From positions 37,074 through 101,073 of the forward strand of contig DAIQNV010000002.1 of NCBI GenBank assembly GCA_036788215.1: a DNA stretch of 64,000 nt, read 5' to 3'. The translations under genes were made by a program, and so were the position numbers. The notes under the pieces are model-generated. The model was not told the origin of the DNA. It saw only the letters and a program-made list of their open reading frames with translations, and did not search any database. This DNA is from Phycisphaerales bacterium. Lineage in GTDB: Bacteria > Planctomycetota > Phycisphaerae > Phycisphaerales > UBA1924. Below, piece by piece: positions 3,013 through 57,542 of this stretch. Numbering within the stretch: the stretch's first letter is position 1; each line of letters starts with the position of its first letter.

Positions 3013-6000
3013 ATGACACCAGCGACCGTGGGCAACCACCCCCACACCACGAAGACGACGACGCGGACCGCCGCGGCGCCGAAGGACGGCCCCGTGGACG
3101 GCCCCGCCGACGGACGGTTCTCGGTCTTCGAGAACGCCCCCGCCTACATCATCGACGGCGCGGAGAACATGCCTCCGTTCCTGTCGACCGTGGTCACGGA
3201 CGCCGACCTTTGGCTGTACGTCTCCTCGTCGGGTGCCCTGACCGCGGGGCGGGGCTCGGCGGATCGCAGCCTCTTCCACTACGAGACCGACGACCGGCTT
3301 CATCGCATGGGGGGCCTGACCGGGCCGGTCACGCGGATCACGGTCGATGGCGAGCGGGCCTGGCTCCCGCTCGACCCGCGCGGGGCTGCCGAGGGCTGCA
3401 CGCGCCGCATCATGCGGGGCGACCAGGCCTCGTTCGTCGCCTTCGAGGAGCACCACCCCGCGCTCGGGCTCACCTTTCGGCAGGGGTGGTGGCTGAGCGA
3501 AACGCACGGCATCGTCCGTCGCTGCTGGCTCGAGCGTGACGCGGGCCAGCCGCCGGTCGAGATCGAGCTGGTCGATGGCCTGATGAACCTCATCCCCGCA
3601 GGCATCCCGGTCGAGCTGCAGCGCTTCGCCAGCACGCTGGCCGACGCCTACACGCGGTGCGAGCTGGACGATGACTCGGGGCTGGCGATCTACGCCCTCG
3701 AATCCCGCATCACGGACCGCGCCGAGCCCGAGGAGCCCCTGACCGCCAATGCGGTCTGGCACGCCGGGCTGGAGGGGGCGGAGGTGTTCCTCGACGAGGA
3801 GGCCTGGTGGCGGTGCCTCCGCGGCGCGGAAACGCCCGAGCCCGTGAGCCTGACGACGGGCCGGCGCGGCGCGTACCTCTGCAAGGCCCGCGTCCGCGTC
3901 GGTGCTGACGAGCCGGCCCACTGGGCGATCGTGGGCGATGTCGACCTCGACCACGCCCGCATCGAGACGCTGCGGGCCCGGCTCCGGTCGGCACCGACGA
4001 CGCCGGACGAACTCGCGGGCGCGATCCACGCGGACACGGGTCGCCTGACGCGTCTGCTCGACAACGCCGACGCCTCGCAGTGCAGCGCCGACCCGGCGCA
4101 GATCGCGTACCACCGCTGCAACACGCTCTTCAACGCGATGCGGGGCGGGGTGCCGGTCGACGGGTACCGCGTCGACCCGGTCGACTTCGCCCGCTTCCTG
4201 GAGCGACGCAACACGATCGCCTCGGAGTCGGCCCGCGGGATGCTCGCCTCCCTGGGTGCCGAGCCCACGATCCAGGACCTGCAGGAAGCGGCCCGGGAGA
4301 CCGGCGACCTCGACCTGATGCGCCTGTGCGCCGAGTACATGCCCCTGACCTTCGGCCGGCGCCACGGGGACCCGAGCCGCCCGTGGAACGCGTTCAGCGT
4401 CCGCGTCCGCAACGACAAGGGCGAGCGCGTCTGCGGCTACGAGGGCAACTGGCGGGACATCTTCCAGAACTGGGAGGGGCTCTGCCTCGCGTACCCCGAC
4501 CTGCTCCCGGGCGTGGTCTCGATCTTCCTGAACGCGTCGACCGCGGACGGGTTCAACCCCTATCGCCTGACGCACAACGGGATCGACTGGGAGTGCCCTG
4601 ATCCCCATAACCCCTGGGCCAACATCGGCTACTGGGGCGATCATCAGATCGTCTACCTGCTGCGCCTGCTCGAGCGCCTGCACGCCTGGCGCCCCGGCAT
4701 GCTCGAGACGGCGCTCGACCGGCCCGCCTTCGCGTACGCGAATGTGCCCTACCGTATCCGCTCCTTCGACGAGATCAAGGCCGACCCGAAGGGCACGATC
4801 GCGTTTGACACGGAACTCGACCGCGAGATCAAGCTGCGCGAGCGGGACTATGGCTCCGACGCCCGTCTGCTGGCGGGAACGGACGGGCGGGTGATCCACG
4901 TCACCCTGCTCGAGAAGCTGCTGGTGCCGGCGCTCGCGAAGATCAGCAACATCGTCCCCGGGGGCGGCGTCTGGATGAACACCCAGCGCCCCGAGTGGAA
5001 CGACGCGAACAACGCGCTCGCCGGCAACGGCGTCTCGATGGTCACGCTCATGCACCTCCGGCGGTACACGGAGTTCTGCATCAATCTGCTGAGTGAGCAC
5101 GACCACGGATCGATCACGCTGACCTCCGAGGTCGCGTCCTGGTGCGACCGCGTGCTCAAGGTGCTCGTCGAGTACCTCGAGCACACGCAGAGCGGCTGGG
5201 TGATGGACGACGCGGAGCGTTGGACCGTGACGACCGCCCTCGGACGGGCCTTCGAGCGGTACCGCGCCTCTCTCTACGACGCCGGCATCGGCCCGCGCCG
5301 CGAGTACCCCACCCGCGTGGTCACCGACCTCTTCCGGCTCGCCCGCCACTACTGCGACCACGCCATCCAGGCGGCGGAACGCGAGGACGGGCTCTTCCAC
5401 AGCTATGGCGTCCTGGAGCGTCCCGACGGGAAGCGGGCGTCCGTCCGCTGGCAGCCCGAGATGCTCGAGGGACAGGTCGCGGCGCTCAGCTCCGGCCGGC
5501 TGACGGGCGAGCGGGCAGCCGATCTCGTCGACTCCATGCTCGACAGCGGGCTCTTCCGCCCGGATCTGCAGACCTTCCTGCTGGCGCCGGTGCGGGAGCG
5601 TGCGTCGTTCCTCGATCGCAACATCGTCCCTGCGGAGCACGCGCCGGAGGATTCGCTGCTCGCCAGACTCGCGGACACCCGGGCCGAATCGATCGCCCGG
5701 CGCGACAGCGCGGGGCGAGTGCGCTTCGGCCCGGCGATGAACACCGAGCGGGACCTCCGCGCCGCCCTCGAGCGGCTCGCCCGGCGCGAGGGGTGGCACG
5801 CGCCCGTGACCTCAGGACGCGACTCCGTCCTGGCAGCGTACGAGGCGACCTTTCACCACTCGCTCAGCATGGGCCGGGCCGAGCAGATGCACAAGTACGA
5901 GGGCATCGGCTGCGTCTACTGGCACATGGTGTCCAAGCTGCTCGTCGCGGTGCAGGAGAGCGCATTCGACGCGCTCGACCAGGCCGAGCCCCAGATCACG

Positions 6001-6531
6001 ATCGATCGGCTCCGTTGCGCGTACCACCGGGTCCGCGACGGCATCGGCTTCAACCACGCGCCGCGCGACTTCGGGGGCTTCCCCTTCGAGCCCTACTCGC
6101 ACTCCCCCCTGCACATCGGTGCCCAGCAGCCCGGCATGACCGGGCAGGCCAAGGAAGGGCTGATCGCCCGCATGGGCGAGCTCGGCGTCCGCGTCCGCGC
6201 GGGCGAGATCCGGCTCGACCCGGTGCTCCTGCGCCGGGACGAGCTGGTCGACCAGCCGGCGGTCTGGCGGTTCATCGACGCGACCGGGGACCAGCGGGCC
6301 ATCGAGCTCCTGCCGGGCGAGATCGGCTTCACCGTCTGCGGGACCCCGTTCGTCCTCATGGTGAACGGCACGCCGGGCGTCGAGATCCGCCTCCGCGACG
6401 GCGGGGAGCACACCTCGGACGGGCTCACGATCCCGAGCGAGTACACCACCGAGATCGCAAGGCGTTCGGGCCGGGTCGAGGTCGTCCGGGCCATCGTGCC
6501 CGAAGCGATGCTGTACAACCCCGAGGCCTGA
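3013..6531 (+). CDS. Large (1172 aa) conserved hypothetical protein; possibly (alpha/alpha)6-barrel glycosidase/phosphorylase-like
   Basis: Long ORF with high GC3 and no signal peptide. Motifs include GYEGNWRDIFQNWEG, NIGYWGDHQIVYLLRLLE and WMNTQRPEWNDANNALAGNG. I cannot place these in a named family, and the function call is a weak guess from the LacI/GH neighbourhood. Confidence 0.7.
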   Translation: MTPATVGNHPHTTKTTTRTAAAPKDGPVDGPADGRFSVFENAPAYIIDGAENMPPFLSTVVTDADLWLYVSSSGALTAGRGSADRSLFHYETDDRLHRMGGLTGPVTRITVDGERAWLPLDPRGAAEGCTRRIMRGDQASFVAFEEHHPALGLTFRQGWWLSETHGIVRRCWLERDAGQPPVEIELVDGLMNLIPAGIPVELQRFASTLADAYTRCELDDDSGLAIYALESRITDRAEPEEPLTANAVWHAGLEGAEVFLDEEAWWRCLRGAETPEPVSLTTGRRGAYLCKARVRVGADEPAHWAIVGDVDLDHARIETLRARLRSAPTTPDELAGAIHADTGRLTRLLDNADASQCSADPAQIAYHRCNTLFNAMRGGVPVDGYRVDPVDFARFLERRNTIASESARGMLASLGAEPTIQDLQEAARETGDLDLMRLCAEYMPLTFGRRHGDPSRPWNAFSVRVRNDKGERVCGYEGNWRDIFQNWEGLCLAYPDLLPGVVSIFLNASTADGFNPYRLTHNGIDWECPDPHNPWANIGYWGDHQIVYLLRLLERLHAWRPGMLETALDRPAFAYANVPYRIRSFDEIKADPKGTIAFDTELDREIKLRERDYGSDARLLAGTDGRVIHVTLLEKLLVPALAKISNIVPGGGVWMNTQRPEWNDANNALAGNGVSMVTLMHLRRYTEFCINLLSEHDHGSITLTSEVASWCDRVLKVLVEYLEHTQSGWVMDDAERWTVTTALGRAFERYRASLYDAGIGPRREYPTRVVTDLFRLARHYCDHAIQAAEREDGLFHSYGVLERPDGKRASVRWQPEMLEGQVAALSSGRLTGERAADLVDSMLDSGLFRPDLQTFLLAPVRERASFLDRNIVPAEHAPEDSLLARLADTRAESIARRDSAGRVRFGPAMNTERDLRAALERLARREGWHAPVTSGRDSVLAAYEATFHHSLSMGRAEQMHKYEGIGCVYWHMVSKLLVAVQESAFDALDQAEPQITIDRLRCAYHRVRDGIGFNHAPRDFGGFPFEPYSHSPLHIGAQQPGMTGQAKEGLIARMGELGVRVRAGEIRLDPVLLRRDELVDQPAVWRFIDATGDQRAIELLPGEIGFTVCGTPFVLMVNGTPGVEIRLRDGGEHTSDGLTIPSEYTTEIARRSGRVEVVRAIVPEAMLYNPEA

Positions 6532-6682
6532 TCGTCGTCCCCCGACGACGGGGGAGGGGTGATCGCCCCGCCCCGCTCCGGTCCCGTCCCCTTCCACACG
6601 GACCGGTCCACCGAGGGCGCCATCAAGCGCCGGAGTGATGGCGTCGATACCCGACCGAGAACCCCCTCGGTCGGAGACCCCG

Positions 6683-8041
6683 ATGACCACCATCCCGCTC
6701 CCGCAGGCCTTCCCCGCCGCGTCCCCGATGCCCAAGCAGAAGGAGACGACGGTCGGGAACTACTTCGTCGCCAACTACCCGCCTTTCGGCCATTGGCGCA
6801 CCGACCGCATCAACGCCTTCCACGAGGCGCTCGACCACGACCCCTCGCCCGGGAACGAGCTGGGCGTGTACGCGCACATCCCGTTCTGCCGCAAGCGGTG
6901 CCACTTCTGCTATTTCCGGGTGTACACGGACAAGAACTCGTCGGAGATCCGGCGGTACCTCGACGCGATGGTCACCGAGCTCAAGGCGGTCGCAGGGCGG
7001 AGGTTCGTGGGCGGGCGCACGCCCAGCTTCGTCTACTTCGGGGGCGGCACGCCGAGCTATCTCTCGCCCGCGCAGTTCGACGATCTGACGCGGGAGATGA
7101 AGGCGGTCCTCCCGTGGGACGACGCCCGCGAGATCACGCTCGAAGCCGAGCCCGGCACGCTGAATCAGAAGAAGCTCGAGGCGATCCGCCGCATGGGCGT
7201 CACCCGCCTGAGCCTGGGCATCGAGCACTTCGATGACCGCCTGCTGGAACTGAACGGGCGGGCCCACCGGAGCAAGCAGACCCTCGCGGCCTACGAGGCG
7301 GCCAGGGGCGTGGGGTTCCCCGAGATCAACGTCGACCTCATCGCCGGCATGCTCGACGAGACCGACGAGGCGTGGCAGGACACGGTCCGCCGGACCATCG
7401 ATCTGGAGCCCGACACCGTCACCATCTACCAGATGGAGGTGCCCTACAACACGACGATCTACCAGCGCATGAAGGAGGAGGGCTCGCTCATCGCCCCGGT
7501 CGCCGACTGGGAGACCAAGCGTCGCTGGGTCAACGAGGCCTTCGCCGAGTTCGTCTCTGCGGGCTATACCGTGACGAGCGCCACCACCGTCGTGAAGGAC
7601 CCCGCGCGGAACCGCTTTGTGTATCGCAACGGGCTCTTCAACGGGTCGGACATCCTGTCCGTCGGCGTCTCCGCCTTCGGGCACATCAACGGCGTCAACT
7701 ACCAGAACGAGCACGATTTCAACCCCTACATCGACGCGGTGCACCAGCGCGGGGGCCTGCCCACCCATCGGGCGTACCCGCTCACGTTCGAGGAACGCTA
7801 CATCCGTGAGTTCGCGCTCCAGCTCAAGGCCGGGCGGGTGCTGGCCCTCCCGTTCGCGCAGAAGTTCGGCGAGAATCCGCGCCACCGCTTCGCCTCGGCG
7901 CTGCAGATCATCGATGGCATGGGCATGCTCGCCCGCGCGGATGACGAGGTCATCGAGGTCACCCGCGAGGGGCTGCTGCAGATCGACCGCCTGCTCTTCG
8001 AGTTCTTCCGCCCCGAGCACCGGCACGGGCGCTTCGCATGA
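6683..8041 (+). CDS. HemN-like radical SAM protein (coproporphyrinogen-III-oxidase-like / class C radical SAM family)
   Basis: HIPFCRKRCHFCYF CxxxCxxC cluster motif, YFGGGTPSYL motif, and HemN-like N-terminal NYPPFGHW. ATG at 6683 is preceded by GGAG; alternative starts at 6635 and 6638. The stop overlaps the next gene as ATGA. Confidence 0.85.
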   Translation: MTTIPLPQAFPAASPMPKQKETTVGNYFVANYPPFGHWRTDRINAFHEALDHDPSPGNELGVYAHIPFCRKRCHFCYFRVYTDKNSSEIRRYLDAMVTELKAVAGRRFVGGRTPSFVYFGGGTPSYLSPAQFDDLTREMKAVLPWDDAREITLEAEPGTLNQKKLEAIRRMGVTRLSLGIEHFDDRLLELNGRAHRSKQTLAAYEAARGVGFPEINVDLIAGMLDETDEAWQDTVRRTIDLEPDTVTIYQMEVPYNTTIYQRMKEEGSLIAPVADWETKRRWVNEAFAEFVSAGYTVTSATTVVKDPARNRFVYRNGLFNGSDILSVGVSAFGHINGVNYQNEHDFNPYIDAVHQRGGLPTHRAYPLTFEERYIREFALQLKAGRVLALPFAQKFGENPRHRFASALQIIDGMGMLARADDEVIEVTREGLLQIDRLLFEFFRPEHRHGRFA

Positions 8042-9597
8042 GCCCCGCCTCGCTCGAAGCCCGGGCCACGACCGGCCTCGCGACGCTCCCCACGGGCGCC
8101 GACTACATCGCCTCGCTCGACGACGACCGCGCCGTCTATCTCGACGGCGCCCGCGTGCGGGACATCGCCCATCACCCGGCGTTCCGCAACAGCGTCCGCT
8201 CCATCGCCCGCCTCTACGACGCCCTGCACGAGCCCGCGGGCGACGGGCTCACCGTGCCCTGCGACGCCGATCCGAGCCAACGCACCCACGCCTTCTTTCG
8301 CGCCGCACGCTGCGCCGACGACCTTCGGGACGCCCAGCGGGCGATCGCCGCCTGGGCCCGCCTCACCTATGGCTGGATGGGCCGCACGCCCGATTACAAG
8401 GCCTCCCTGACGACCACCCTCGGCGCCAACGCCGACTTCTTCGGCCCGTACGCGGACAACGCCCGTCGCTGGTACAGCCACGCCCAGGGGCACCTCCCCT
8501 TCCTGGGCCACGCGGTCGTCAACCCTCCGATCGACCGCCACCTGCCCGTCGAAGAGACCGGCGATACCGCGGTCCGCGTGGTCCGCGAGACCGACGCGGG
8601 GATCATCGTCTCGGGCGCGAAGGTCGTTGCCACCTCCGCCGCCATCGCCAATCACTGCTTCATCGGCCAGACACCCAACACCGCCTCCGACGACCCCGCC
8701 ATGGCGGTCTCGTTCATCGCCAGGCTCGACACGCCGGGCATCGCACTGATCTGCCGCAACTCCTACGAACTGGCCTCCCGCTCCGCCTTCGAGTCACCCC
8801 TCGCCTCCCGGTTCGACGAGAACGACGCGATCATCACCTTCAACGAGGCCCTCATCCCGTGGGAGGATGTCCTCATCCACCGCGATCCCGAGCGCGTCGC
8901 CCAGTTCTTCCCGCGCTCCGGCTTCGTCAACCAGTTCCTCTTCCATGGGTGTACCCGCCTGGCGGTCAAGCTCGACTTCATCGCGGGCCTGCTCGCCAAG
9001 GCGCTCCGTATCACCGGGGGCCACACCGCCCGGGGCAAGCGAGCCCTGCTGGGCGAGGTCATCGCCCACAGGCACGCCTTCTGGTCGCTCTCGAACGCCA
9101 TGGCCTCGAGCCCCGATCCCTGGGCCAACGGGCACGTGCTGCCGAATCACGACGCCGCGCTCGCCTACTGCGTCCTTGCGCCCGACGCCTACCCCCGCGT
9201 CCGCGCCATCGTGCAGCAGATCGTCGCCTCGGGACTCATCTACCTGCCCGCGTCCGCCGCGGATCTCGACCACCCGGAGACCGCCCCGCTGCTCGCCCGC
9301 TACGCCCGGGGCTCCGAGAACACCGACCACCGCGAACGCACGAAGATCATGAAACTCCTCTGGGACGCGGTCGGCACCGAGTTCGCAGGCCGCCACGAGC
9401 TCTACGAGCGGAACTACGCCGGGGGCTGGGAGTGCACCCGCCTCATGGTCGAGGCCTCCGCGAGGGGGCGCCGCAAACTCGACGCCATGGAAGCACTCGT
9501 CGACCGGTGCCTCGCGGACTACGACGAACAGGGCTGGACCACCGACACCTGGATTTCTCCGACATCGCCCGAAAGCATCCCCATCGACGCTGCCTGA
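8038..9597 (+). CDS. HpaB-family flavin-dependent monooxygenase (4-hydroxyphenylacetate 3-monooxygenase oxygenase component-like)
   Basis: 519 aa. YGWMGRTPDYKAS, VVRETDAGIIVSGAKVVATSAA and the C-terminal HpaB-type helical domain. ATGA overlap with the radical SAM gene and TGATG overlap with the next gene. Confidence 0.85.
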   Translation: MSPASLEARATTGLATLPTGADYIASLDDDRAVYLDGARVRDIAHHPAFRNSVRSIARLYDALHEPAGDGLTVPCDADPSQRTHAFFRAARCADDLRDAQRAIAAWARLTYGWMGRTPDYKASLTTTLGANADFFGPYADNARRWYSHAQGHLPFLGHAVVNPPIDRHLPVEETGDTAVRVVRETDAGIIVSGAKVVATSAAIANHCFIGQTPNTASDDPAMAVSFIARLDTPGIALICRNSYELASRSAFESPLASRFDENDAIITFNEALIPWEDVLIHRDPERVAQFFPRSGFVNQFLFHGCTRLAVKLDFIAGLLAKALRITGGHTARGKRALLGEVIAHRHAFWSLSNAMASSPDPWANGHVLPNHDAALAYCVLAPDAYPRVRAIVQQIVASGLIYLPASAADLDHPETAPLLARYARGSENTDHRERTKIMKLLWDAVGTEFAGRHELYERNYAGGWECTRLMVEASARGRRKLDAMEALVDRCLADYDEQGWTTDTWISPTSPESIPIDAA

Positions 9598-10232
9598 TGA
9601 ACCCCCACCACGCCCGCCTGCGCGACCGCCTCTACGACACCTTCCGGGGCCGCCCCACACCCCTGCTCTGCGCCGACGAGTACACCATCCCCGGCGCGTC
9701 CCTCTGGTCCGGGGCGCGTCTGTGGGTCAACGCGCTGCGGGTCCACGATCTCGGGCCGGGCGACCGCGTCCTGCTCGCGCTGCCCCGCACGCCCGCCTCG
9801 GTGATGGCGACGCTCGCCTGCTGGTGGGAGGGGCTCACCGTCTGCCCCGCCGACGCCTTCGACCCGGCCCAACTCGCCACGCTCGACGCTGCCCTCGCCC
9901 TCGCCGACGCCGACCACCCGAGCGTCCTCCGGCGGGCCCGCGACGAGCACCCCGCCCCGGGCCCGGTCACGCTCCGTCTTGCCCGCACGCCCCGCACGCC
10001 CGAGGTCGCTCTCCTCCTCCCCGACAGCGGGCCCGTTCCCTTCCAGACCATCGCCGATCTGGGCGCCCGCGCCGTCACGAGCATCGAGCCCTTCGAACTC
10101 CGCGAACCCTGGGACACCCACGACGGCTTGCTCGCGGACGATCGCGGGCTCTGGCCGATCCTCTTTGCGGGCGCCATCGTGCGGGTTGCCTACGCCGGTC
10201 GTCCGATCACGCCACTCGCCCGCGCCGCCTGA
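9597..10232 (+). CDS. Short (211 aa) protein resembling only the N-terminal part of an adenylate-forming (acyl/aryl-CoA ligase) enzyme, without a P-loop
   Basis: LGPGDRVLLALPRTPASVMATLACWWEGLTVCPAD resembles the substrate-side N-terminal segment of 4CL/acyl-CoA ligases. PEVALLLPDSGPVPF sits where the SGTTGxPKG motif is expected. The ORF stops after 211 codons and is start/stop-coupled to the HpaB-like gene. Confidence 0.5.
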   Translation: MNPHHARLRDRLYDTFRGRPTPLLCADEYTIPGASLWSGARLWVNALRVHDLGPGDRVLLALPRTPASVMATLACWWEGLTVCPADAFDPAQLATLDAALALADADHPSVLRRARDEHPAPGPVTLRLARTPRTPEVALLLPDSGPVPFQTIADLGARAVTSIEPFELREPWDTHDGLLADDRGLWPILFAGAIVRVAYAGRPITPLARAA

Positions 10233-10463
10233 GGGGGTATCCACCCGGCTCCGCTCCGGGGATCGTCTGCGCCAGACGATGAACTCCCTCGCCCCGAGCG
10301 TCCTCCCGCGACGGTGTCCTCCACTGCATCTCAAGCACCACCGGGGCTTCTCCGATTTCTCATCTGCACGCAAGGCCCGACGCCCGCCGACTCACGCGGG
10401 GCCGCGGCCGGGAGTCGGGTGCTGCACCCGGTGTTGTCCGTCCTCTCGAAAGGAAGCCAGATC

Positions 10464-10796
10464 ATGAACACCGAGACCGTCGAGAGCCTGGAGATGCAGC
10501 TCCGCTCTCTCTACGAGGAGCGCGAGTTCCTCGCCCAGAAGTATGGAGTCTCGTCCGCCGACGAAGTCGTCTCGATGGTCTCGAACCTCGAGGCCCAGCT
10601 CCACGACTTCTACCACAAGTACGGGAGCTTCGACAGCGACGACAATTCCGGCATCATCCTGGGCCGGCTCAAGGAGCTCAGCTCCGCGCTCGACCCCATG
10701 TACTCGCAGAAGAGTGTCACATTCACGTTTGAGAACAACCGCCCCGTCCTCCGCGCCGAGTGGACCGAGCAGCTGAACCAAGGAGACGCCCAGTGA
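10464..10796 (+). CDS. Hypothetical 110-aa acidic protein, translationally coupled to pyp
   Basis: ATG at 10464 is preceded by AGGAAG. Translation MNTETVESLEMQLRSLYEEREFLAQKYG... has a predicted helical N-terminus and good GC3 codon bias. Its stop at 10794-10796 overlaps the GTG at 10793 and lies 6 nt before the ATG at 10802 of pyp. Confidence 0.7.
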   Translation: MNTETVESLEMQLRSLYEEREFLAQKYGVSSADEVVSMVSNLEAQLHDFYHKYGSFDSDDNSGIILGRLKELSSALDPMYSQKSVTFTFENNRPVLRAEWTEQLNQGDAQ

Positions 10797-10801
10797 ACAG
10801 C

Positions 10802-11188
10802 ATGATGAGTGCCCCCGCCGGGACCTTTGTCCCGAACGAGCTCTTCCCGATGCTCGGGAACCTTTCCCGCAACGACGCCGATTCCTGCGACTTCGGGATC
10901 ATCCAGCTCGACGACTCGGGCAAGGTGATCATGGTCAACCGCTACCAGTCCGAACTCGGCGGCGTCCCCGTCTCCCAGTTCGAGAACCGCAACTGGTTCA
11001 CCCAGATCGCACCCTGCACCAACAACGGGCTGGTCTTCGGCATGTTCAAGAAGGGCGTCGCCGCGGGCAACATGAACACCGTGTTCCCCTACACCTTCAC
11101 CTTCAAGATGAAGCCCACCAACGTCAAGATCCACTTCTACCGCGACCAGAAGTCGGGCCGGAACTTCGCGTTCGTCGCCCGCGCCTGA
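10802..11188 (+). CDS. pyp: Photoactive yellow protein (PYP) homologue, stand-alone PAS photoreceptor
   Basis: 128 aa. Aligns without gaps to Halorhodospira halophila PYP from FG(A/I)IQLD through NFF..APC to the C-terminus: FGIIQLDDSGK..., NWFTQIAPC, GVAAGNMNTVFPYTFTFKMKPTNVKIHF, FAFVARA. Chromophore Cys is conserved at codon 72 (11015-11017). An alternative GTG start at 10793 sits 7 nt after AGGAG. Confidence 0.9.
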   Translation: MMSAPAGTFVPNELFPMLGNLSRNDADSCDFGIIQLDDSGKVIMVNRYQSELGGVPVSQFENRNWFTQIAPCTNNGLVFGMFKKGVAAGNMNTVFPYTFTFKMKPTNVKIHFYRDQKSGRNFAFVARA

Positions 11189-11324: not shown

Positions 11325-13247
11325 GTGGTCCACAGTCGAGCCTGCGCCCTGCTCTGCGCGTGCGTGCTGGGCCCGCTCACCGCCGCGGCCGACCCGACCG
11401 CCACCCCGCCGGGACCGGAGACCGCCCGGGCCATCACGCCCGACCCCGCCCGCGATGGCTTCCGGTACCCGGTCTCCCGCGTCCGATTCAGCCTGCCCTA
11501 CGAGCACCAGGACGCGCCCGATCTCGGGTCGATCAGCGCGACCGTCGTCCCCCTGACGCCCACCCCCGAGGGCTGGATCGCCCCGCCCACGCCCGGCGCC
11601 CCCACCGTCGAGGTCGCTCTCGACCGTCCCCTCGACGCGTTCGAAGCCGCCCCCCCGGTCCTCTTCGGGAGCGCGATCGCTGCCATCACCCGACGGGTCC
11701 AGTCCGCCTTCGCGACGGACCCGGGACTCATCGGGCACCTCGTCATCCCCGACCCCGACCAGATCGATCCCGCCACCAGCGAGGATCTCCGCCCCGCGGC
11801 CGCGACCGATCTCACCGTCTCCATCTACCTCGCCACCGTCGCCGATACGCGCACGATCGGCTTCGGTCGCCGCCTGCCCGAGGACGCCCAGCCCATCAAC
11901 CACCCCGCCCACGCCCGCATCCTCCGCAACGCCCCGCTCGCGACCGGGGACCTGCTCGCCCGCCCGCCCATCGATCGCTTCGTCGCCCGCCTGAACCGCC
12001 ACCCGGGCCGGCGGGTCGAGACCGCGGTCGCGCCGACGGGCGAGCCCGGGCGGGTCTCGCTCGACTTCCTCGTGACCGAAGCCAAGCCCTGGACCGTCTA
12101 CGCCCAGGTCGCCAACACCGGCACCCGCTCGACCGACGAGATGCGCATGCTCTTCGGCGCCCGCCACACCCAGCTCACCGGGCGGGACGACGTCCTCACC
12201 GTCAACTACATCACCGCGGAGTTCGACGCCACGAACGCGGTCGCCGCCAGCTATGTCCGCCCGCTCGACGACCTGGGCCGGATCACGCTCACGATCAACG
12301 GCGCTTGGAATGAGTACACCGCGAGCGACATCGGGCTGGGCCTGGCTGCCCTGGAGGGCGAGGGCTACGACGCGGGCGCGGAACTGGCCATCGAGCTCGC
12401 CGAGATCGGCCGGGGCTTCCTCCACGCCTTCGCGGGCCTGCAGTACCGCCGGATCAGCATCGACAACCTCCTCGCGGGCGTCGAGGGCGAGACCGACCTC
12501 CTGCTCGCCAGCGCCGGCGTGCGATTCGCCAGGGCCGGCCTCACGAGCGATACCACACTCTCCGGTTCCATCGAGGCGAATCTCCCCGACATCGCCGGCA
12601 CCGACGAGTCCGACCTCGTCTTCCTTGGGCGATCCGACGCGGACACCTCCTTCGCGGTCCTCCGGTTCGAAGCGGCCCACAGCCTTTTCCTTGAGCCCCT
12701 TTTCGACCCTGATGGCTATGCGGGCCGGCGCGGGCCCGACGCCATGACCCTCGCCCACCGCCTCACCCTCTCCGCCCGAGGGCAGTACACGCCGGAGCGC
12801 CGCCTCGTCGCCAACCTGCAGGCCATCGCGGGCGGGTTCTTCACCGTCCGGGGCTACGAGGAGGCGGTCGCTTCGGGCGACTCGGCGCTCATCGCGTCGA
12901 TCGAGTACCGGTATAGCCTCGCCGCCGCCCTGCCCCCGGCGGAGCGGGCGGGCTCCCTGGCGGGGCGACCCTTCCGCACCGCCCGGCAGGAGCCCTACGG
13001 CACCGCGGACTGGGACATCGGCCTCCGCGTCTTCGCCGATCTCGCGGTCGTGGACAACAACGACCGGGCCCCGGGCGAGTCCGACGAGACGCTGATGGGC
13101 ATCGGCGTGGGTGTTGACGCCCGGCTCTGGACCAACCTGACGGCCCGGGCCGACCTGGGCGTGGCACTCTCGGACGCTCGATCGCAGACGAACCCGGCGA
13201 ATCAGGGCGATACCAGGCTGCATTTCGCCGTCATCGTGTCATACTGA
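11325..13247 (+). CDS. ShlB/FhaC/HecB-family two-partner-secretion outer-membrane transporter (TpsB)
   Basis: GTG start 6 nt after AAGGAGAG. Signal peptide, POTRA-like N-terminal region, and C-terminal beta-barrel with FFTVRGYEEAVASGDSALIASIEYRY. Ends in an aromatic residue (VIVSY). Confidence 0.85.
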   Translation: MVHSRACALLCACVLGPLTAAADPTATPPGPETARAITPDPARDGFRYPVSRVRFSLPYEHQDAPDLGSISATVVPLTPTPEGWIAPPTPGAPTVEVALDRPLDAFEAAPPVLFGSAIAAITRRVQSAFATDPGLIGHLVIPDPDQIDPATSEDLRPAAATDLTVSIYLATVADTRTIGFGRRLPEDAQPINHPAHARILRNAPLATGDLLARPPIDRFVARLNRHPGRRVETAVAPTGEPGRVSLDFLVTEAKPWTVYAQVANTGTRSTDEMRMLFGARHTQLTGRDDVLTVNYITAEFDATNAVAASYVRPLDDLGRITLTINGAWNEYTASDIGLGLAALEGEGYDAGAELAIELAEIGRGFLHAFAGLQYRRISIDNLLAGVEGETDLLLASAGVRFARAGLTSDTTLSGSIEANLPDIAGTDESDLVFLGRSDADTSFAVLRFEAAHSLFLEPLFDPDGYAGRRGPDAMTLAHRLTLSARGQYTPERRLVANLQAIAGGFFTVRGYEEAVASGDSALIASIEYRYSLAAALPPAERAGSLAGRPFRTARQEPYGTADWDIGLRVFADLAVVDNNDRAPGESDETLMGIGVGVDARLWTNLTARADLGVALSDARSQTNPANQGDTRLHFAVIVSY

Positions 13248-13261
13248 GGGCGAACCAAACC

Positions 13262-16200
13262 ATGAAGACACCGCCCGCAAACCTGATGCTCGCCGGAACG
13301 GCACTCCTGCTGTCGCTCCCCACCCTCCCCGCGGTCGCCGGCCCCGATGGCAGCACCGTCGCCCGGGGCTCCGCCTCCATCGCCCGGGACGGCGCCGTCA
13401 CCACGATCACCGCGAGCGACGGGGCGATCCTGAACCACCAGTCGTTCCACATCGCCCCGCACGAGGCGGTGCGGTTCCTGCAGCCCCACGCGGGCGCCCG
13501 CGTCCTCAACCGCGTCGTCGGACCGGACGCCTCGCTGATCGAGGGCAGCCTCTTCGCCAACGGGCGGGTCTACCTCGTCAACCCCAACGGCATCTTCATG
13601 GGCCCGGACGCGATCGTCCGTACCTCGGCCTTCATCGCGGCGGGCGCCCACATGGCCGATGCCGACTTCCTTGCCGGCCTCGACCGCTTCACCGACGCAC
13701 GGGGCGCCGTGGTCAACCAGGGCCTGATCGAGGCTGGAGAGGTCATGCTCTTCGGGCGGACCGTCGCCAACCTCGGCACGATCAACGCCCCCAACGGGAC
13801 CGTCGCGCTGCTCGCGGGGGAGAACCTCTACCTGAAGCCGGGCGATGGCGGGCCGCTGGTGCAGCTCGACGCGTCCGGGCCGCCCGAACGCCCCGCGGTG
13901 CACGCCGGGCCGACACTCGCCGCGGGCGACATCTACTCCATGGCGGTCTGGCAGGGCGGGCGCACGACCGCCCGGGCGGTGCGGGCGCAGAGCGCCGATG
14001 TCCGCCCTGTGGTCAACACGGGCGACATCCGCGCTCAGAGCGACGACGGGCGGGGCGGGGAGATCCTGCTCGCGGGCCCCGCTGTCCGCGTGTGGGATGG
14101 CACGCTCGACGCCTCGGGGCCCATGGGCGGGGGCACGGTGCAGATCGGGGCCCGCCCCAACGGCGCCGCCCCGCTGAGCGCCACGGTCCACACCGAGGCG
14201 GGCGTCACCGTCCGGGCCGACGCGACCGGGCGGGGCGACGCCGGCTCGATCGAGCTGTGGTCCAGCCACCTGACCCTCGCCGCAGGGGAGCTTTCCGCCC
14301 GTGGTGGCCCCCTCGGGGGCGACGGGGGATTCATCGAAACCTCCAGCATGGGCGGGCTCCTTGCGGACGCGGGGGTCGATATCGGGGCGAGCAACGGTCG
14401 GGCGGGGCTCTACCTGATCGACCCGGTGGACGTGCTGATCACAACACGTGCGCTCGCGCTCAGCAAGCTTGGCCAGTTGACGAACCCCACCGGCGAGCCC
14501 GTCCTGAGCCTCGTTCTGGTCAACCGGGTGACGCAGGCACTCCTGACGGGCAATGTCGAGATCAATACCGAGTTCTCCCGCGGCGCGGGCAACGGGACGA
14601 TCACGGTCGATGTCGAGGACCCGGACCGTTTCGGCGCAGAAGCGGTGAGCTACGCCCTGCCCGGCCCGCGCACGCTGACACTCCGCGCGCACCGCGATAT
14701 CCGCATCCTGAGCCCGCTCGCACCCGACGGAACGAGTGCGCCCCTGAACCTCGTGCTCGCGGCGAACAGCACCTTCCCGAACGACCCCGACCCCGACCCG
14801 GCGACGGGAGACGTCCGCCTCTCCGCGCCCATCCGCCTCTCCGGGGGCGGCCTGACCTCGTCGGGCGTCAACTTCAACGGGACGCTTGGCCTGATCACCG
14901 CCGGCTGGGTCGACCTGCAGCACTCGGGAACCGTCACGCTGGGATCGGATGTCACGCTCACCGGCATCGGACCCGGGGGCAACGCGCTCCGCGCGACCGG
15001 CACGAGCTTCACACTGAACGCCAATGTGCCGCTGACGACCTCCGCCGGAGGCGGGATCAGCCTCTCGTTCTCCGACACGGTCACCATCGGGAACGGGGGG
15101 CTCCTTGACCTGGGCAACGCCTTCAGCATCACGGGGGCCCAGTCCGTCTCCCTCGGGCGTGACGTGCGCACGACGGGCGACCCGATCACCATCGAGGGTG
15201 CGGTGACGCTGACCGGCGGGGACCGGCTCTTGCGGAGCAACTTCAACACCCTCGGCGCACCCATAGCGCTCGGAGCGATCGAGCGGGCCGCGACGGACCC
15301 GGGCGGGCTCACCGTGCGGTCGGGCAACGGCGCCATCGTTCTGGGCGACGCCGGCCAGGCGAACCCGCTCGCGTTCATGACGGTCGAAGGCGCGTCCGTC
15401 TCCGTCGGCAGCGCCAGGACCACCGGTCCCCAGACCTACACCGTGCAGAACGCCCAACTGCGCGGAGGCACACTCGAGACCGCGAGCGCAAACCTCGCGA
15501 TCTTCGGCGCGTCGCGCCTGCAGGGCAGCACGACGCTGCGCACCTCGGGCGGGCCGGGCGGGGGCGCGGTGACCCTCGGGTCTGTCGACTCCGACGGCGC
15601 GGGAAGCCGCGCCTTCACGATCGACGCGGGCTCCGCCCCCGTTGGACTGACCGGCGACATCGGCGGGCTCGCGGCCCCGCAGTCGCTGACGATCAACGCG
15701 GGACCGATCTCCGCAGCGTCGCTCGTGACCCTGGGCCCGCAGAGCATCACCGCGACGGAGACCACGCTGCGAGGCGGGATCGTCGCCTCGCTCGTGGGGG
15801 GCTCGATCACCTTCATCGGGCAGGTCCGACTGAATAACGGTGTGACCGCCTTCACCGCGGGCAACGCCGGCGACGACCTGAACTTCGTCGGCCCCATCGT
15901 CGCCCCGGGCGTCGGGCTCGCGCTCAACGCCGGACAGGCGGGCACCGTGACCTTCCTGAGCGGCGCCGGGCTCGTGGGCGGGGAGCTGGGGCGCCTCGAT
16001 GTCTCGCTCGCCGGGCTAACGCAGCTCGCGGGCGATATCCGCACGCTCGGGGGCGTCCGCATCGGCTCCCCGCTCCGGATCGTGGGCGGCTCATCCATCG
16101 TGGACGCCCGGGGCGGCACCACCGTCATCGCGGGCGACGTGACCGGCGCCGCGGGCCTCGCCCCGACGCTGACTTTCGCCTGGGAGGGCACCGCCGGCGT

Positions 16201-17428
16201 GCAGGTCATCGGCAGCACCTCCTTGCTCCGCACGCCCCTGACGATCCTGGGCAACGTCGGCTCCACAGGCGGGGACAGCGAGACCTTCGCCCTGGGCTCC
16301 GTCATCTTCGGCTCGGACACGCCGGGCGGAGCGATCCCCACGACCGCCTCCGTCGTCTTCTCGAGCGTCGAGCCCGGCGCCAACGGTCTCTACGACGCGG
16401 GGGCGATCGACCTGGGGCGGGCCTACACGATCCGCGCCCTCGACGCGATCACCTTCGGCGCTTCGCGGAAGCTCCTGGTCTTCGGCTCCGCCGAACTCCG
16501 CGCGGGCGCGCCCGGGCGGAGCGGAGCGATGCTGCTGGGCGACGTGACAACCTTCGGAGACCTCGCCCTCCGCTCCTTAGGCCCCGCCGGCACCATGGCC
16601 TTCCGCTCCCGCCCGCCCGGCTTCGTCGAGTCACCCGCCACCGAGATCGACCGCCTCGCCGGCGGGGGAGGCGTGCTGACCCCCGACACCGGCGTCGACG
16701 TCGTCTCAGGGGGCAACCTCACCTGGGAGATCACCAGCGGGACGGGTGCCCCGACCCAGGGGGGCGGACCGGTCGTCGTGCTCGTCGCGGCCAATCCCGG
16801 GCTCTCCCCCGCGGGCAATGTGCTCTCCTTCGCATCACCCATGAGCACAGCGCTCTTCGCGGGCCAGGGCCCGGCCACGACCGGACGCCTGTTCTCGTAC
16901 GACCTGTCCGCCGCCGCGATCGGTGCGTCCGGCGGCGGGCCGGGTTCCAACGGAGGCGGAACGGGCGGCAATGGCGGGTCCGGCGGAGGCACGCCCGGTG
17001 GCGGCACTCCCGACACCGGTGTCACGACAACCGTCGACCCCGCGGAGGCGCGGGCCCTCCTCGAATCCGAGGGCGTCTTCACGGAGCTCGCCTCACCTAC
17101 CCGCGTCCTGAGCGACGCGGACGCCCTCGCGTCCCTCGGGATCATCCTGATCGACGACGCCACCGCCGGACGCGGCGCCGCCACAGGCGGCGCGATCGTC
17201 CTCGTCGACCAGGCACCCTTCGGAGGAGTCGACCCCGAAGAGCCCTACCGGGTCTCCTCGCGCCGCGTGAGCCGGACCGCGGCGACCGCAGCCGCGGAGC
17301 GTTTCCGCGAAGTCGTGGCCGGGACGGGCGACCTGCAATCCCTCGCAAATGCGCTCGCGGCCCTCGGGCTGACCGACGGTGAACGTGCGCTCGCGCTCGA
17401 TCGGGCGGGGCGCGCCCTGGGCGGGTAG
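13262..17428 (+). CDS. Filamentous-haemagglutinin-type TpsA exoprotein (1388 aa) with N-terminal TPS domain
   Basis: Signal peptide, then the TPS secretion domain: ITASDGAILNHQSFHIAPHEAVRFLQP...RVLNRVVG...GSLFANGRVYLVNPNGIFMG. This is followed by long beta-helical G/T/L/A-rich repeats, a Gly-rich linker and an unassigned C-terminal region. Confidence 0.9.
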   Translation: MKTPPANLMLAGTALLLSLPTLPAVAGPDGSTVARGSASIARDGAVTTITASDGAILNHQSFHIAPHEAVRFLQPHAGARVLNRVVGPDASLIEGSLFANGRVYLVNPNGIFMGPDAIVRTSAFIAAGAHMADADFLAGLDRFTDARGAVVNQGLIEAGEVMLFGRTVANLGTINAPNGTVALLAGENLYLKPGDGGPLVQLDASGPPERPAVHAGPTLAAGDIYSMAVWQGGRTTARAVRAQSADVRPVVNTGDIRAQSDDGRGGEILLAGPAVRVWDGTLDASGPMGGGTVQIGARPNGAAPLSATVHTEAGVTVRADATGRGDAGSIELWSSHLTLAAGELSARGGPLGGDGGFIETSSMGGLLADAGVDIGASNGRAGLYLIDPVDVLITTRALALSKLGQLTNPTGEPVLSLVLVNRVTQALLTGNVEINTEFSRGAGNGTITVDVEDPDRFGAEAVSYALPGPRTLTLRAHRDIRILSPLAPDGTSAPLNLVLAANSTFPNDPDPDPATGDVRLSAPIRLSGGGLTSSGVNFNGTLGLITAGWVDLQHSGTVTLGSDVTLTGIGPGGNALRATGTSFTLNANVPLTTSAGGGISLSFSDTVTIGNGGLLDLGNAFSITGAQSVSLGRDVRTTGDPITIEGAVTLTGGDRLLRSNFNTLGAPIALGAIERAATDPGGLTVRSGNGAIVLGDAGQANPLAFMTVEGASVSVGSARTTGPQTYTVQNAQLRGGTLETASANLAIFGASRLQGSTTLRTSGGPGGGAVTLGSVDSDGAGSRAFTIDAGSAPVGLTGDIGGLAAPQSLTINAGPISAASLVTLGPQSITATETTLRGGIVASLVGGSITFIGQVRLNNGVTAFTAGNAGDDLNFVGPIVAPGVGLALNAGQAGTVTFLSGAGLVGGELGRLDVSLAGLTQLAGDIRTLGGVRIGSPLRIVGGSSIVDARGGTTVIAGDVTGAAGLAPTLTFAWEGTAGVQVIGSTSLLRTPLTILGNVGSTGGDSETFALGSVIFGSDTPGGAIPTTASVVFSSVEPGANGLYDAGAIDLGRAYTIRALDAITFGASRKLLVFGSAELRAGAPGRSGAMLLGDVTTFGDLALRSLGPAGTMAFRSRPPGFVESPATEIDRLAGGGGVLTPDTGVDVVSGGNLTWEITSGTGAPTQGGGPVVVLVAANPGLSPAGNVLSFASPMSTALFAGQGPATTGRLFSYDLSAAAIGASGGGPGSNGGGTGGNGGSGGGTPGGGTPDTGVTTTVDPAEARALLESEGVFTELASPTRVLSDADALASLGIILIDDATAGRGAATGGAIVLVDQAPFGGVDPEEPYRVSSRRVSRTAATAAAERFREVVAGTGDLQSLANALAALGLTDGERALALDRAGRALGG

Positions 17429-56258: not shown

Positions 56259-57542
56259 ATGCCCCTGTCGGCCCGGACCCTGAGCGTGATACACGATAGA
56301 TCCCTCCCCATCCTCACGCAACGCCACGAAACCCCCGACCCAAACACGACCCCCACTTCGCACCCGCTCGGGGCCCCTCGGGCCGGTGGCGGGGCGCGGT
56401 CGCTGTACATCCACATCCCGTTCTGCTTCCACAAGTGCCACTACTGCGACTTCTACTCCATCGTCGACCGCCAGGACCGCCAGGCCCCGTTTACCGACCG
56501 GCTGATCGCGGAACTGGAGGCGCTGGCACCGCACGCGAGCACGCTCGACACCATCTTTGTCGGTGGCGGGACGCCCACGCTGCTCCGCCCGGACCTGTGG
56601 GAGCGCCTGCTGGCGGCGCTGCACGGGCTTTTCCGGGTTTCCGCGTCGGCCGAGTTCACGGTCGAGGCCAACCCGGAGACCATCACCTCGGAACTGGCGG
56701 GCCTGCTGGCGGGGGGCGGGGTGAACCGCATCTCCGTCGGGGCCCAGTCGTTCAACGAGAAGCACCTCAAGACCCTCGAACGCTGGCACGACCCGGCGAA
56801 GGTCGGGCGGGCGATCGAGCTGGCCCGGGACGCGGGGATCGCCCGCCAGTCGCTCGACCTCATCTTCGCGATCCCGGGGCAGACGCTCGAGGACTGGGCG
56901 CGGGACCTCGACACCGGGCTCGCGCTCGGGACGACGCACCTCTCGGCGTACAACCTGACCTACGAGCCCGCGACCGCCATGACCGCCCGCCTGCAGAAGG
57001 GCGAGTTCGAGCCCACCGACGAGGACCTCGAGATCGACATGCTCGAACTGCTCGTTGAGAAGACGGGGCGGGCGGGGCTCGGGCGCTACGAGGTCTCCAA
57101 CTTCGCGGCCCCGGGCGACGAGTGCCGGCACAACCTCGCCTACTGGCGGCAGCACGACTGGCTGGCGGCGGGCCCCAGCGCCAGCGCCCACATCGCTGGC
57201 CACCGCTGGAAGAACACGCCCCGCCTCGCGGATTACTTAGCGAACAACAACGCGGGCCTGCCACCCATCACCGACCACGAGGGGCCCGACCCCCGCAGGG
57301 CGCTCGCGGAGCGGATCATGACGGGCCTGCGCCTTCGCGAGGGGCTCGATCGCCAGGCGATCCTCACCGCCGCAGCCAGCATCGACGCCGACACCCACAC
57401 CCGCCTCGCCCGGGCCATCGACACCCTCGACGCCGCGGGGCACACCCTCCCGCACTCGACCCACCTCCGCCTCACCCACGAGGCCCTCCTGCAAGCCGAC
57501 GGCCTCGCCGCCAACCTCATGCACGCCATCGACCCCGACTGA
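56259..57542 (+). CDS. hemW: Radical SAM family haem chaperone HemW (HemN-like)
   Basis: LYIHIPFCFHKCHYCDFYS, VGGGTPTLL and NRISVGAQSF, plus a HemN_C-like C-terminus. The N-terminal boundary is uncertain. Confidence 0.85.
   Translation: MPLSARTLSVIHDRSLPILTQRHETPDPNTTPTSHPLGAPRAGGGARSLYIHIPFCFHKCHYCDFYSIVDRQDRQAPFTDRLIAELEALAPHASTLDTIFVGGGTPTLLRPDLWERLLAALHGLFRVSASAEFTVEANPETITSELAGLLAGGGVNRISVGAQSFNEKHLKTLERWHDPAKVGRAIELARDAGIARQSLDLIFAIPGQTLEDWARDLDTGLALGTTHLSAYNLTYEPATAMTARLQKGEFEPTDEDLEIDMLELLVEKTGRAGLGRYEVSNFAAPGDECRHNLAYWRQHDWLAAGPSASAHIAGHRWKNTPRLADYLANNNAGLPPITDHEGPDPRRALAERIMTGLRLREGLDRQAILTAAASIDADTHTRLARAIDTLDAAGHTLPHSTHLRLTHEALLQADGLAANLMHAIDPD

Follow-up and report, generated by a model that had tools for sequence, protein, structure and literature searches.

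Gene content of the locus

In a 64-kb stretch of a Phycisphaerales genome (GenBank assembly GCA_036788215.1, contig DAIQNV010000002.1; GC content, 70%), hereafter called the window, a homolog of photoactive yellow protein (PYP), the textbook model photoreceptor, is encoded downstream of three overlapping genes. These encode a HemN-like radical S-adenosylmethionine (SAM) protein (rSAM), an HpaB-type phenol hydroxylase (HpaB), and a 211-residue protein (p211) related to p-coumarate-coenzyme A ligase (pCL). Comparison with related loci supports a link of the rSAM-HpaB pair to PYP. The features are listed in Table 1, and gene positions are window coordinates.

The open reading frame (ORF) listing and direct reading of the DNA bore out the original prediction of three codirectional genes joined by overlapping start and stop codons (ATGA at 8038-8041 and TGATG at 9595-9599). 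Pfam and NCBIfam searches upheld its family assignments for all three, the match of p211 to the N-terminal end of the AMP-binding family being weak, and the separate, ordinary hemW gene that it named was recovered by its TIGR00539 score. The three genes have a GC content at third codon positions (GC3) of 0.91 to 0.94, which is a coding composition, and are under purifying selection. The 231-nt gap downstream of them had been placed directly before pyp, which was wrong: the gap leads to a further gene, p110, which overlaps pyp, the GTG start codon of pyp at 10793 overlapping the p110 stop codon.

The window had also been said to lack an ammonia-lyase of the 4-methylideneimidazole-5-one (MIO) type and a flavin reductase. 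The first part stands: tblastn with the tyrosine ammonia-lyase (TAL) of a related locus, L018, found no MIO-type TAL in the window or in the related loci L002, L012, L031, L036, and L037, and tblastn with a related-locus TAL and a full-length pCL found neither a TAL nor a second pCL copy in the 64 kb. As to the second part, a Pfam run on about 20 of the about 50 window ORFs matched no reductase; no HpaC-type reductase adjoins HpaB in the window or in the related loci. HpaB oxygenases can use general flavin reductases.

Table 1. Features of the window discussed in the text
Feature	Position	Strand	Description	Evidence or remark
rSAM	6683..8041	+	HemN-like radical SAM gene, 452 aa	CxxxCxxC and GGGTP motifs, Pfam Radical_SAM
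HpaB	8038..9597	+	HpaB-type flavin-dependent phenol 3-hydroxylase, oxygenase component, 519 aa	Pfam HpaB_N and HpaB
p211 (short pCL)	9597..10232	+	N-terminal subdomain of PYP-dedicated p-coumarate-CoA ligase, 211 aa	Alignment to full-length pCLs
Intergenic gap	10233..10463	+	Conserved, 231 nt, with promoter-like motif at 10330-10358	
p110	10464..10796	+	110 aa, without Pfam or NCBIfam match	Constant upstream partner of pyp in the clade
pyp	10793..11188	+	PYP homolog, 131 aa; Cys69 kept; Val42, Gln46, Trp62, Phe119	TIGR02373
hemW	56259-57542		Genuine hemW	TIGR00539, 266.8 bits (cutoff, 205.4)

Two types of PYP locus

When 185,579 species genomes and the JGI metagenomes were scanned with a pattern, 20 loci (referred to by L numbers) were obtained, which were mapped by tblastn and ORF clustering. 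PYPs are rare in the Planctomycetes-Verrucomicrobia-Chlamydiae (PVC) group, which holds about 1% of the known ones according to a PYP survey (PMC12826048). The loci fall into two types. In type A, a gene for an uncharacterized protein of 140 to 164 aa is followed by p110, pyp, a full-length pCL of 476 to 499 aa, and an MIO lyase of 521 to 543 aa. The ligase is an AMP-binding enzyme with 4-coumarate-CoA ligase as its best solved-structure match, the lyase scores 438 bits against Lyase_aromatic, and type A is thus the canonical pyp-pcl-tal set. It was found complete in L014, L015, L016, and L018, from metagenome-assembled genomes (MAGs) of Phycisphaerales, and partially in L013, L020, L021, and L022.

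In type B, which marine bacteria of planctomycete type carry and to which the window belongs, p110 and pyp adjoin rSAM and HpaB. The order rSAM-HpaB-short pCL-gap-p110-PYP is shared by the window and L002, L012, and L036; L037 to L039 have the same order without the short pCL; and in L031 p110, pyp, and the short pCL, in this order, diverge from rSAM and HpaB over a shared 370-nt region. The rSAM/HpaB ATGA overlap is present in all eight intact lineages examined (window/L002, L006, L007, L012, L031, L032, L036, and L037), five of which have p110-pyp alongside, in three arrangements, and the short pCL is coupled to HpaB by start and stop codons in six lineages. The link to pyp, for which the original prediction could cite only proximity and shared orientation in one genome, is thereby extended to five lineages. 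Neither rSAM nor HpaB occurs in the recovered flanks (up to 10 kb on each side) of any full-length pCL-TAL locus, and neither TAL nor full-length pCL occurs at any rSAM-HpaB locus examined; the two types exclude each other.

Neighbor-joining trees place the window PYP clade (98% support) as sister to the type A core, with the L031 PYP outside both. The short pCL of L031 likewise lies outside a clade with 100% support that unites the type A full-length ligases and the short forms of the window clade. Since a truncated ligase cannot regain its lost half, this position of L031 suggests that type B arose from type A on two independent occasions, each of which would have combined ligase truncation, loss of TAL, loss of Tyr42 in PYP (see below), and adjacency to rSAM-HpaB. 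The HpaB and rSAM trees are star-like and leave the history of these two genes unresolved.

Type A loci are followed by gas-vesicle-type genes encoding GvpL/F, a CDC48-like AAA ATPase, ArsA, and a protein with a weak HSP20-like match (L014, 5890-13394; L015, 13000-20501; L016, 12689-20306; L017, 13045-20239; L018, 12982-20575). L017 has kept pCL-TAL together with these genes and has lost p110 and pyp. The type A loci echo the linkage of pyp to gas-vesicle genes in Rhodobacter.

The chromophore pocket of PYP

The window PYP scores 88.8 bits against TIGR02373 (cutoff, 143.05) and is clearly homologous yet divergent. For residue mapping, 17 PYPs from the recovered loci were aligned to Halorhodospira halophila PYP. 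Cys69, within the motif APCTNN, is kept in the window and in all related loci. Residue 42 is Val, Cys, or Met in all seven PYPs at rSAM-HpaB loci, including L005, where it is Cys and stands beside a deleted pair; it is Tyr, once Phe, in all 11 comparison PYPs (10 from other loci and the reference). In an unbiased scan of all alignment columns, the two sets were told apart by positions 40 and 42 and by no others. PYPs of the window clade further have Gln46, Trp for Phe62, Val, Ile, or Leu for Phe75, and Phe for Trp119.

To our knowledge, every characterized PYP binds p-coumarate, held by Tyr42 and Glu46. Two surveys state that 99.7% of 984 PYPs have Tyr or Phe as residue 42 (PMC12826048) and that no PYP bearing Cys69 has substitutions of both Tyr42 and Glu46 (PMC9664959). 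The window clade, which combines Val42, Gln46, and Cys69 and keeps neither Tyr/Phe42 nor Glu46, breaks this published rule. In a search of cluster representatives, about 11 of 150 PYPs have Cys69 together with a nonaromatic residue 42. Every PYP at an rSAM-HpaB locus lacks Tyr42, which fits the "rewired" binding pocket noticed originally in the window and the idea, put forward at the same time, of a 3-substituted cinnamate as the chromophore. Loss of Tyr42 along with a type B locus probably arose twice, judging from the trees. Loss of the ligase alone does not predict it, since the PYPs of L028 to L030, which have a decayed pCL and no rSAM-HpaB in view, have kept Tyr42.

P0246, the top-scoring representative in the PYP search, has 1,174 aa and contains four PYP-like stretches; proteins with several PYP units of this kind seem to be unusual.

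A truncated p-coumarate-CoA ligase

p211 matches only the first about 50 positions of the Pfam AMP-binding profile (26.3 bits; gathering threshold, 29.9), and a homolog search with it alone yielded few relatives. Its origin became apparent from alignment with the full-length pCLs encoded right after pyp in L014, L015, L016, and L018: over about 200 aa it is 37 to 39% identical to residues 1 to about 230 of these enzymes. It also matches the short form of L007 with an E value of 5e-38. Its P-loop (motif A3) is degenerate, TSGTSG being replaced by DSGP. Only about 20 aa follow motif A4, so that motifs A5, A7, and A8 and the A10 lysine are absent. By this alignment p211 goes back to the PYP-dedicated pCL, either truncated or internally deleted, and with its degenerate P-loop and without motifs A5 to A10 it cannot adenylate. 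The N-terminal ligase piece of the earlier description is no odd addition to the locus; it is the PYP-dedicated ligase itself in truncated form. The AlphaFold model of p211 has a modest mean predicted local distance difference test score (pLDDT, 65.7), and every Foldseek match was an ANL N-terminal domain, 4-coumarate-CoA ligase included.

We considered whether p211 is a dead pseudogene. This was ruled out by a ratio of nonsynonymous to synonymous substitution rates (dN/dS) of 0.21 to 0.31 among the window, L002, and L005, which is similar to that of the neighboring ShlB gene, by a coding GC pattern (0.77/0.56/0.91 by codon position), and by intact frames at nine loci, where short forms of 206 to 332 aa share a common end boundary with mutual identities down to about 35%. 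A single ancient paralog family of short forms was not recovered as a clade in the neighbor-joining tree, whose support was weak. Like p211, the 230-aa actinobacterial proteins of TIGR03089 stand alone, the size range being about 200 to 230 aa, and match only the start of ANL enzymes; p211, however, scores only 22 bits against this family (cutoff, 85), and its descent is demonstrably from the pCL that is linked to PYP in its own clade.

A C-terminal -AA is found in the majority of the full-length PYP-linked ligases and also of the short forms (LAA, RAA, IAA, or QAA; window 10221-10232, L002, L007, L012, L014 to L016, L018, and L036). These C termini resemble an ssrA-like degron, and their common occurrence suggests an internal deletion, not a simple 3' truncation, as the origin of the short form. 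Another PYP subclade has no more than a stretch of about 80 aa similar to pCL downstream of pyp (L028, 1578-2099; L029 and L030, 10001-10231), out of frame with the called ORF in L028; decay of the ligase has therefore taken place more than once among the PYP loci of planctomycetes.

The HpaB-type hydroxylase

HpaB scores 269.8 bits against Pfam HpaB_N and 194.9 bits against HpaB. It aligns over its full length with Escherichia coli HpaB (structures 6b1b and 6qyh; 546 bits), the oxygenase of the HpaBC system, whose family ortho-hydroxylates 4-substituted phenols, including p-coumarate, which E. coli HpaBC converts to caffeate (PMC3379962). In the alignment to 6qyh, the substrate- and FAD-contacting residues R113, Y117, H155, and R164 are identical, the first three of which bind the phenol (PMC10816480). 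Because of this identity, the window protein very probably works as an ortho-hydroxylase on some 4-substituted phenol. It differs from the E. coli enzyme in falling below the cutoff of the TIGR02310 equivalog (600.5 bits; cutoff, 885.2) and in the loop that determines specificity by binding the tail of 4-hydroxyphenylacetate (residues 207 to 217), where S210-A211-Q212 is replaced by T-P-N. Unlike in the E. coli system, neither an HpaC reductase nor hpa catabolic genes adjoin it, and it is translationally coupled to rSAM.

The HemN-like radical SAM protein

The window rSAM (Pfam Radical_SAM, 89.9 bits) shares with HemN, HemW, ChuW (HutW), and the class C methyltransferases the radical SAM core with CxxxCxxC and GGGTP and a similar length, and it carries a HemN-like N-terminal extension. 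It differs from the defined members in scoring about equally, between 160 and 181 bits, against all of them: HutW, 180.7 bits (cutoff, 400); hemN (TIGR00538), 169.7 bits (cutoff, 324.95); HemW, 164.2 bits (cutoff, 205.4); HemZ, 161 bits; and STM4012, 160 bits. With every curated cutoff missed, its profile scores assign it to none of the defined HemN-like equivalogs. We also considered the plain HemN of the organism, which was not supported, as the HemN score is no better than those of HutW, HemW, and HemZ; the true HemW lies elsewhere in the window. The best solved-structure matches are HemN (1olt, 128 bits) and the class C methyltransferase NocN (100 bits). A homolog search returned 8,000 matches; among the matches listed, the top ones are 60 to 72% identical, and those with a named source come from Planctomycetota, Verrucomicrobiota, and once Limnocylindria. 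By these matches rSAM is a member of a large, PVC-wide HemN-like family without assigned function.

In three Verrucomicrobiota loci, a conserved protein of about 190 aa follows or adjoins the rSAM homolog (L008, 9333-9905; L009, 2818-3390; L010, 12201-12767) and may hint at what the family does in general. Searches of Pfam, NCBIfam, and PDB sequences gave no match for it. A motif-based guess that it is a chorismate-lyase/DUF98-type protein was therefore dropped, and with it a link of rSAM to 4-hydroxyaryl metabolism.

The intergenic gap and p110

Among the window, L002, and L005, the gap between p211 and p110 has a column identity of 89%, equal to that of the flanking coding DNA, and is therefore no neutral spacer. 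A reading as structured RNA was rejected (no Rfam match at an E value of ≤1; fold z-score, -0.09). The better reading is a promoter: the gap contains the motif CTCAAGC-N16-CCGATTTC, and L012 and L036 have it again upstream of p110, as do L037 and L031 in a weaker form. The motif is probably part of a promoter/leader belonging to p110-pyp itself, possibly of the extracytoplasmic function (ECF) type, and transcript continuity from the three upstream genes into p110-pyp is therefore doubtful.

In types A and B alike, nearly every recovered PYP locus has p110 directly upstream of pyp; it was not found in L022. In L028 to L030 it is tandemly duplicated within one ORF (L028, 405-1049; L029, 8949-9443), and in L024 p110-like repeats of about 45 aa (xQLxxLYxERExL...VSxAxEIVxMVxSLExQLxDLY) occur in long ORFs (4839-7028 and 7685-9751) together with PYP-like domains. 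We regard p110 as a candidate signaling partner of PYP.

A separate promoter would suit an arrangement of a sensor beside its output, in which p110-PYP is a blue-light module that controls its neighbors or is coregulated with them, the gas-vesicle genes in type A and, in type B, an rSAM-HpaB pair making a catechol- or pigment-type product, with the chromophore coming from elsewhere. PYPs regulate pigment synthesis, biofilm formation, and taxis, according to the survey (PMC12826048); the two units of L031 diverge from their shared region; and both rSAM and HpaB are enzymes of a general kind that also occur outside PYP organisms. We nevertheless consider this arrangement distinctly unlikely, as it leaves unexplained why the truncation of pCL and the absence of TAL coincide exactly with the presence of rSAM-HpaB, why only rSAM-HpaB loci show the loss of Tyr42, and why the short pCL is start/stop coupled to HpaB in six lineages.

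Possible role of rSAM-HpaB in chromophore chemistry

A functional connection of the rSAM-HpaB pair with the PYP chromophore accounts best for the comparative pattern. Our explanation is tentative and, in our estimate, somewhat short of evenly probable: the window would be a variant (type B) PYP locus in which rSAM-HpaB acts on the chromophore or its precursor. In the ancestral state of this Phycisphaerae group, p110-pyp-pCL-TAL, TAL would have made p-coumarate and pCL would have activated it for thioester attachment to Cys69. In the window lineage TAL has gone from the locus, pCL has been reduced to a selected 211-aa stub, and p110-pyp adjoins the coupled rSAM-HpaB. HpaB might ortho-hydroxylate a 4-hydroxyphenyl moiety, all chemical steps being inferred, and PYP would then carry, as our best guess, a chromophore of the 3,4-dihydroxycinnamoyl type. 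Loss of Tyr42, which normally donates a hydrogen bond to the phenolate, would make room for the 3-hydroxyl group, or this group would compensate for the lost hydrogen bond. The short pCL might serve as a noncatalytic adaptor, for example in docking apo-PYP or the aryl substrate. For rSAM we can only conjecture two roles, a HemN-type hydrogen abstraction at the benzylic carbon, which would desaturate a 3-arylpropionyl thioester, or a class C ring methylation. A p-coumarate source and an activating ligase would have to be encoded at other genomic sites, or a hydroxycinnamate would be taken from the environment. The HpaB step appears the best supported of the proposed mechanism because the phenol-hydroxylase active site is intact and E. 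coli HpaBC makes caffeate from p-coumarate (PMC3379962).

A more far-reaching reading is that a natural PYP subfamily, with Val, Cys, or Met at position 42, usually Gln46, and Cys69, uses a chromophore other than p-coumarate, most simply an HpaB-made 3,4-dihydroxycinnamoyl group or, more radically, a group that rSAM, HpaB, and the short pCL make and attach without TAL or ATP-dependent ligation. This claim we regard as somewhat unlikely. PYP has reportedly been reconstituted in vitro with caffeate and ferulate.

A complete replacement of the canonical pathway, in which rSAM, HpaB, and the short pCL make and attach a different chromophore, possibly protein derived or linked by a thioether or quinone, without ATP-dependent activation and so stand in for TAL as well as pCL, is highly improbable. 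It would account for the loss of TAL and of the adenylating half of pCL, probably twice, wherever rSAM-HpaB adjoins, and a radical SAM enzyme paired with a flavin monooxygenase (QhpD/QhpG) matures the protein-derived cofactor cysteine tryptophylquinone (CTQ). The proposal is nevertheless a conjecture: we know of no cross-links formed by the HemN-like family, L005 keeps pyp without rSAM-HpaB, L037 has no short pCL, and close homologs of rSAM and of HpaB each occur singly, with no pyp seen alongside.

Several observations also count against the more modest proposal, that rSAM-HpaB acts on the chromophore or its precursor. A hydroxylase replaces neither TAL nor an adenylating ligase, and the model therefore needs unseen genes. 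The absence of TAL and pCL is not peculiar to type B either, as most pyp operons lack them (5% have TAL and 32% have pCL, according to a published PYP survey). The original prediction had named conservation of the three upstream genes in genomes lacking pyp as the finding that would tell against a link, and co-occurrence with this PYP clade as the one that would favor it. Both were found in part. The pair lacks pyp within the available 4 to 8 kb on either side in L007 and L032, and single homologs are found elsewhere; p110-pyp accompanies the pair in the five of eight lineages noted above. In L005, a close relative, 2.45 kb (window 6859-9310) has been replaced with about 114 nt (L005, 1883-1996). 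This deletion destroys rSAM and HpaB, leaving an HpaB remnant with an in-frame stop codon, and p211, p110, and pyp remain intact and under purifying selection. The window rSAM is 61 to 65% identical to the Verrucomicrobiota copies of L008 to L010, which have neither HpaB nor pyp alongside, and HpaB is 62% identical to the product of a stand-alone Acetobacteraceae gene next to an ATP synthase operon; neither protein looks like a specialized paralog. The independence of L031 relies on neighbor-joining trees whose internal support is weak and in which long branches may have had an effect. To these points must be added the probable promoter of p110-pyp itself and the dN/dS of PYP, which is 0.5 to 0.9 in deep type B comparisons and 0.13 to 0.33 in type A, values that are biased by a GC3 of at least 0.9.

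The elevated dN/dS is compatible with relaxed constraint, and the whole locus might be degenerating: chromophore supply would have been lost, PYP would be drifting toward a PAS domain that has no chromophore or scavenges p-coumarate, and rSAM-HpaB would be a neighbor by descent, belonging to aromatic or tetrapyrrole metabolism. The lost TAL, the catalytically dead pCL, the replacement of Tyr42, Glu46, Phe62, Phe75, and Trp119 together in the window clade, the out-of-frame pCL remnants in L028 to L030 without rSAM-HpaB in view, the loss of rSAM-HpaB from L005 with pyp kept, and the wide occurrence of rSAM and HpaB homologs where no pyp is in view would all fit. Degeneration is unlikely all the same, although it stays, with the sensor arrangement, a serious rival to our explanation. 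Cys69 and the loop FFTQ(I/V)APC(T/A)NN are kept in all seven type B PYPs, and in close comparisons PYP, p110, and p211 have a dN/dS of 0.12 to 0.32. The adjacency has also survived three gene arrangements, and Tyr42 persists in the L028 to L030 PYPs despite their decayed pCL.

Relation to known PYP systems

The window locus resembles the canonical pyp-pcl-tal operon of H. halophila and Rhodobacter in having a single-domain PYP with Cys69 and a ligase homolog in the same locus, and sister Phycisphaerales MAGs carry the full arrangement. It differs in the absence of TAL, in a ligase cut to 211 aa without P-loop or motifs A5 to A10, in the presence of p110 before pyp, in the pocket residues Val42, Gln46, and Trp62, and in the neighboring rSAM-HpaB. 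Two surveys of PYP neighborhoods report pCL, TAL, kinases, GGDEF/EAL proteins, and others as neighbors; nothing in their available sections refers to a partner of the radical SAM, HpaB, or p110 type or to a truncated pCL (PMC12826048, PMC9664959). Our literature searches found nothing relevant on a HemN-like protein together with HpaB or on a natural PYP with caffeate. We would call the locus categorically new only if its chromophore chemistry proves different; otherwise it is a variant of the known PYP system.

If the link of rSAM-HpaB to PYP is functional, the locus would point to a PYP tuned in nature, spectrally or chemically, by means of a modified chromophore, and it would offer a first functional handle on the very large uncharacterized HemN-like family of PVC bacteria. 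Should the chromophore be something other than p-coumarate, PYP would have its first naturally different one, and a part of rSAM in making it would give HemN-like radical SAM enzymes a first role in the maturation of a photoreceptor. p110, as a constant genetic partner of PYP, is a candidate for its long-sought downstream signaling partner.

Flanking genes

Directly upstream of rSAM, the window encodes a GH149 β-1,3-glucan phosphorylase (3013-6531; 1,214 bits; cutoff, 1,150), accompanied by a LacI-type regulator and an N_methyl/SBP_bac_10 protein. The synteny of this gene with rSAM, HpaB, and p211 is kept in L002 to L005. Directly downstream of pyp lies a two-partner secretion (TPS) pair (11325-17428), consisting of an ShlB-type transporter and a 1,388-aa TPS-domain exoprotein, which is kept in L002 and L005.

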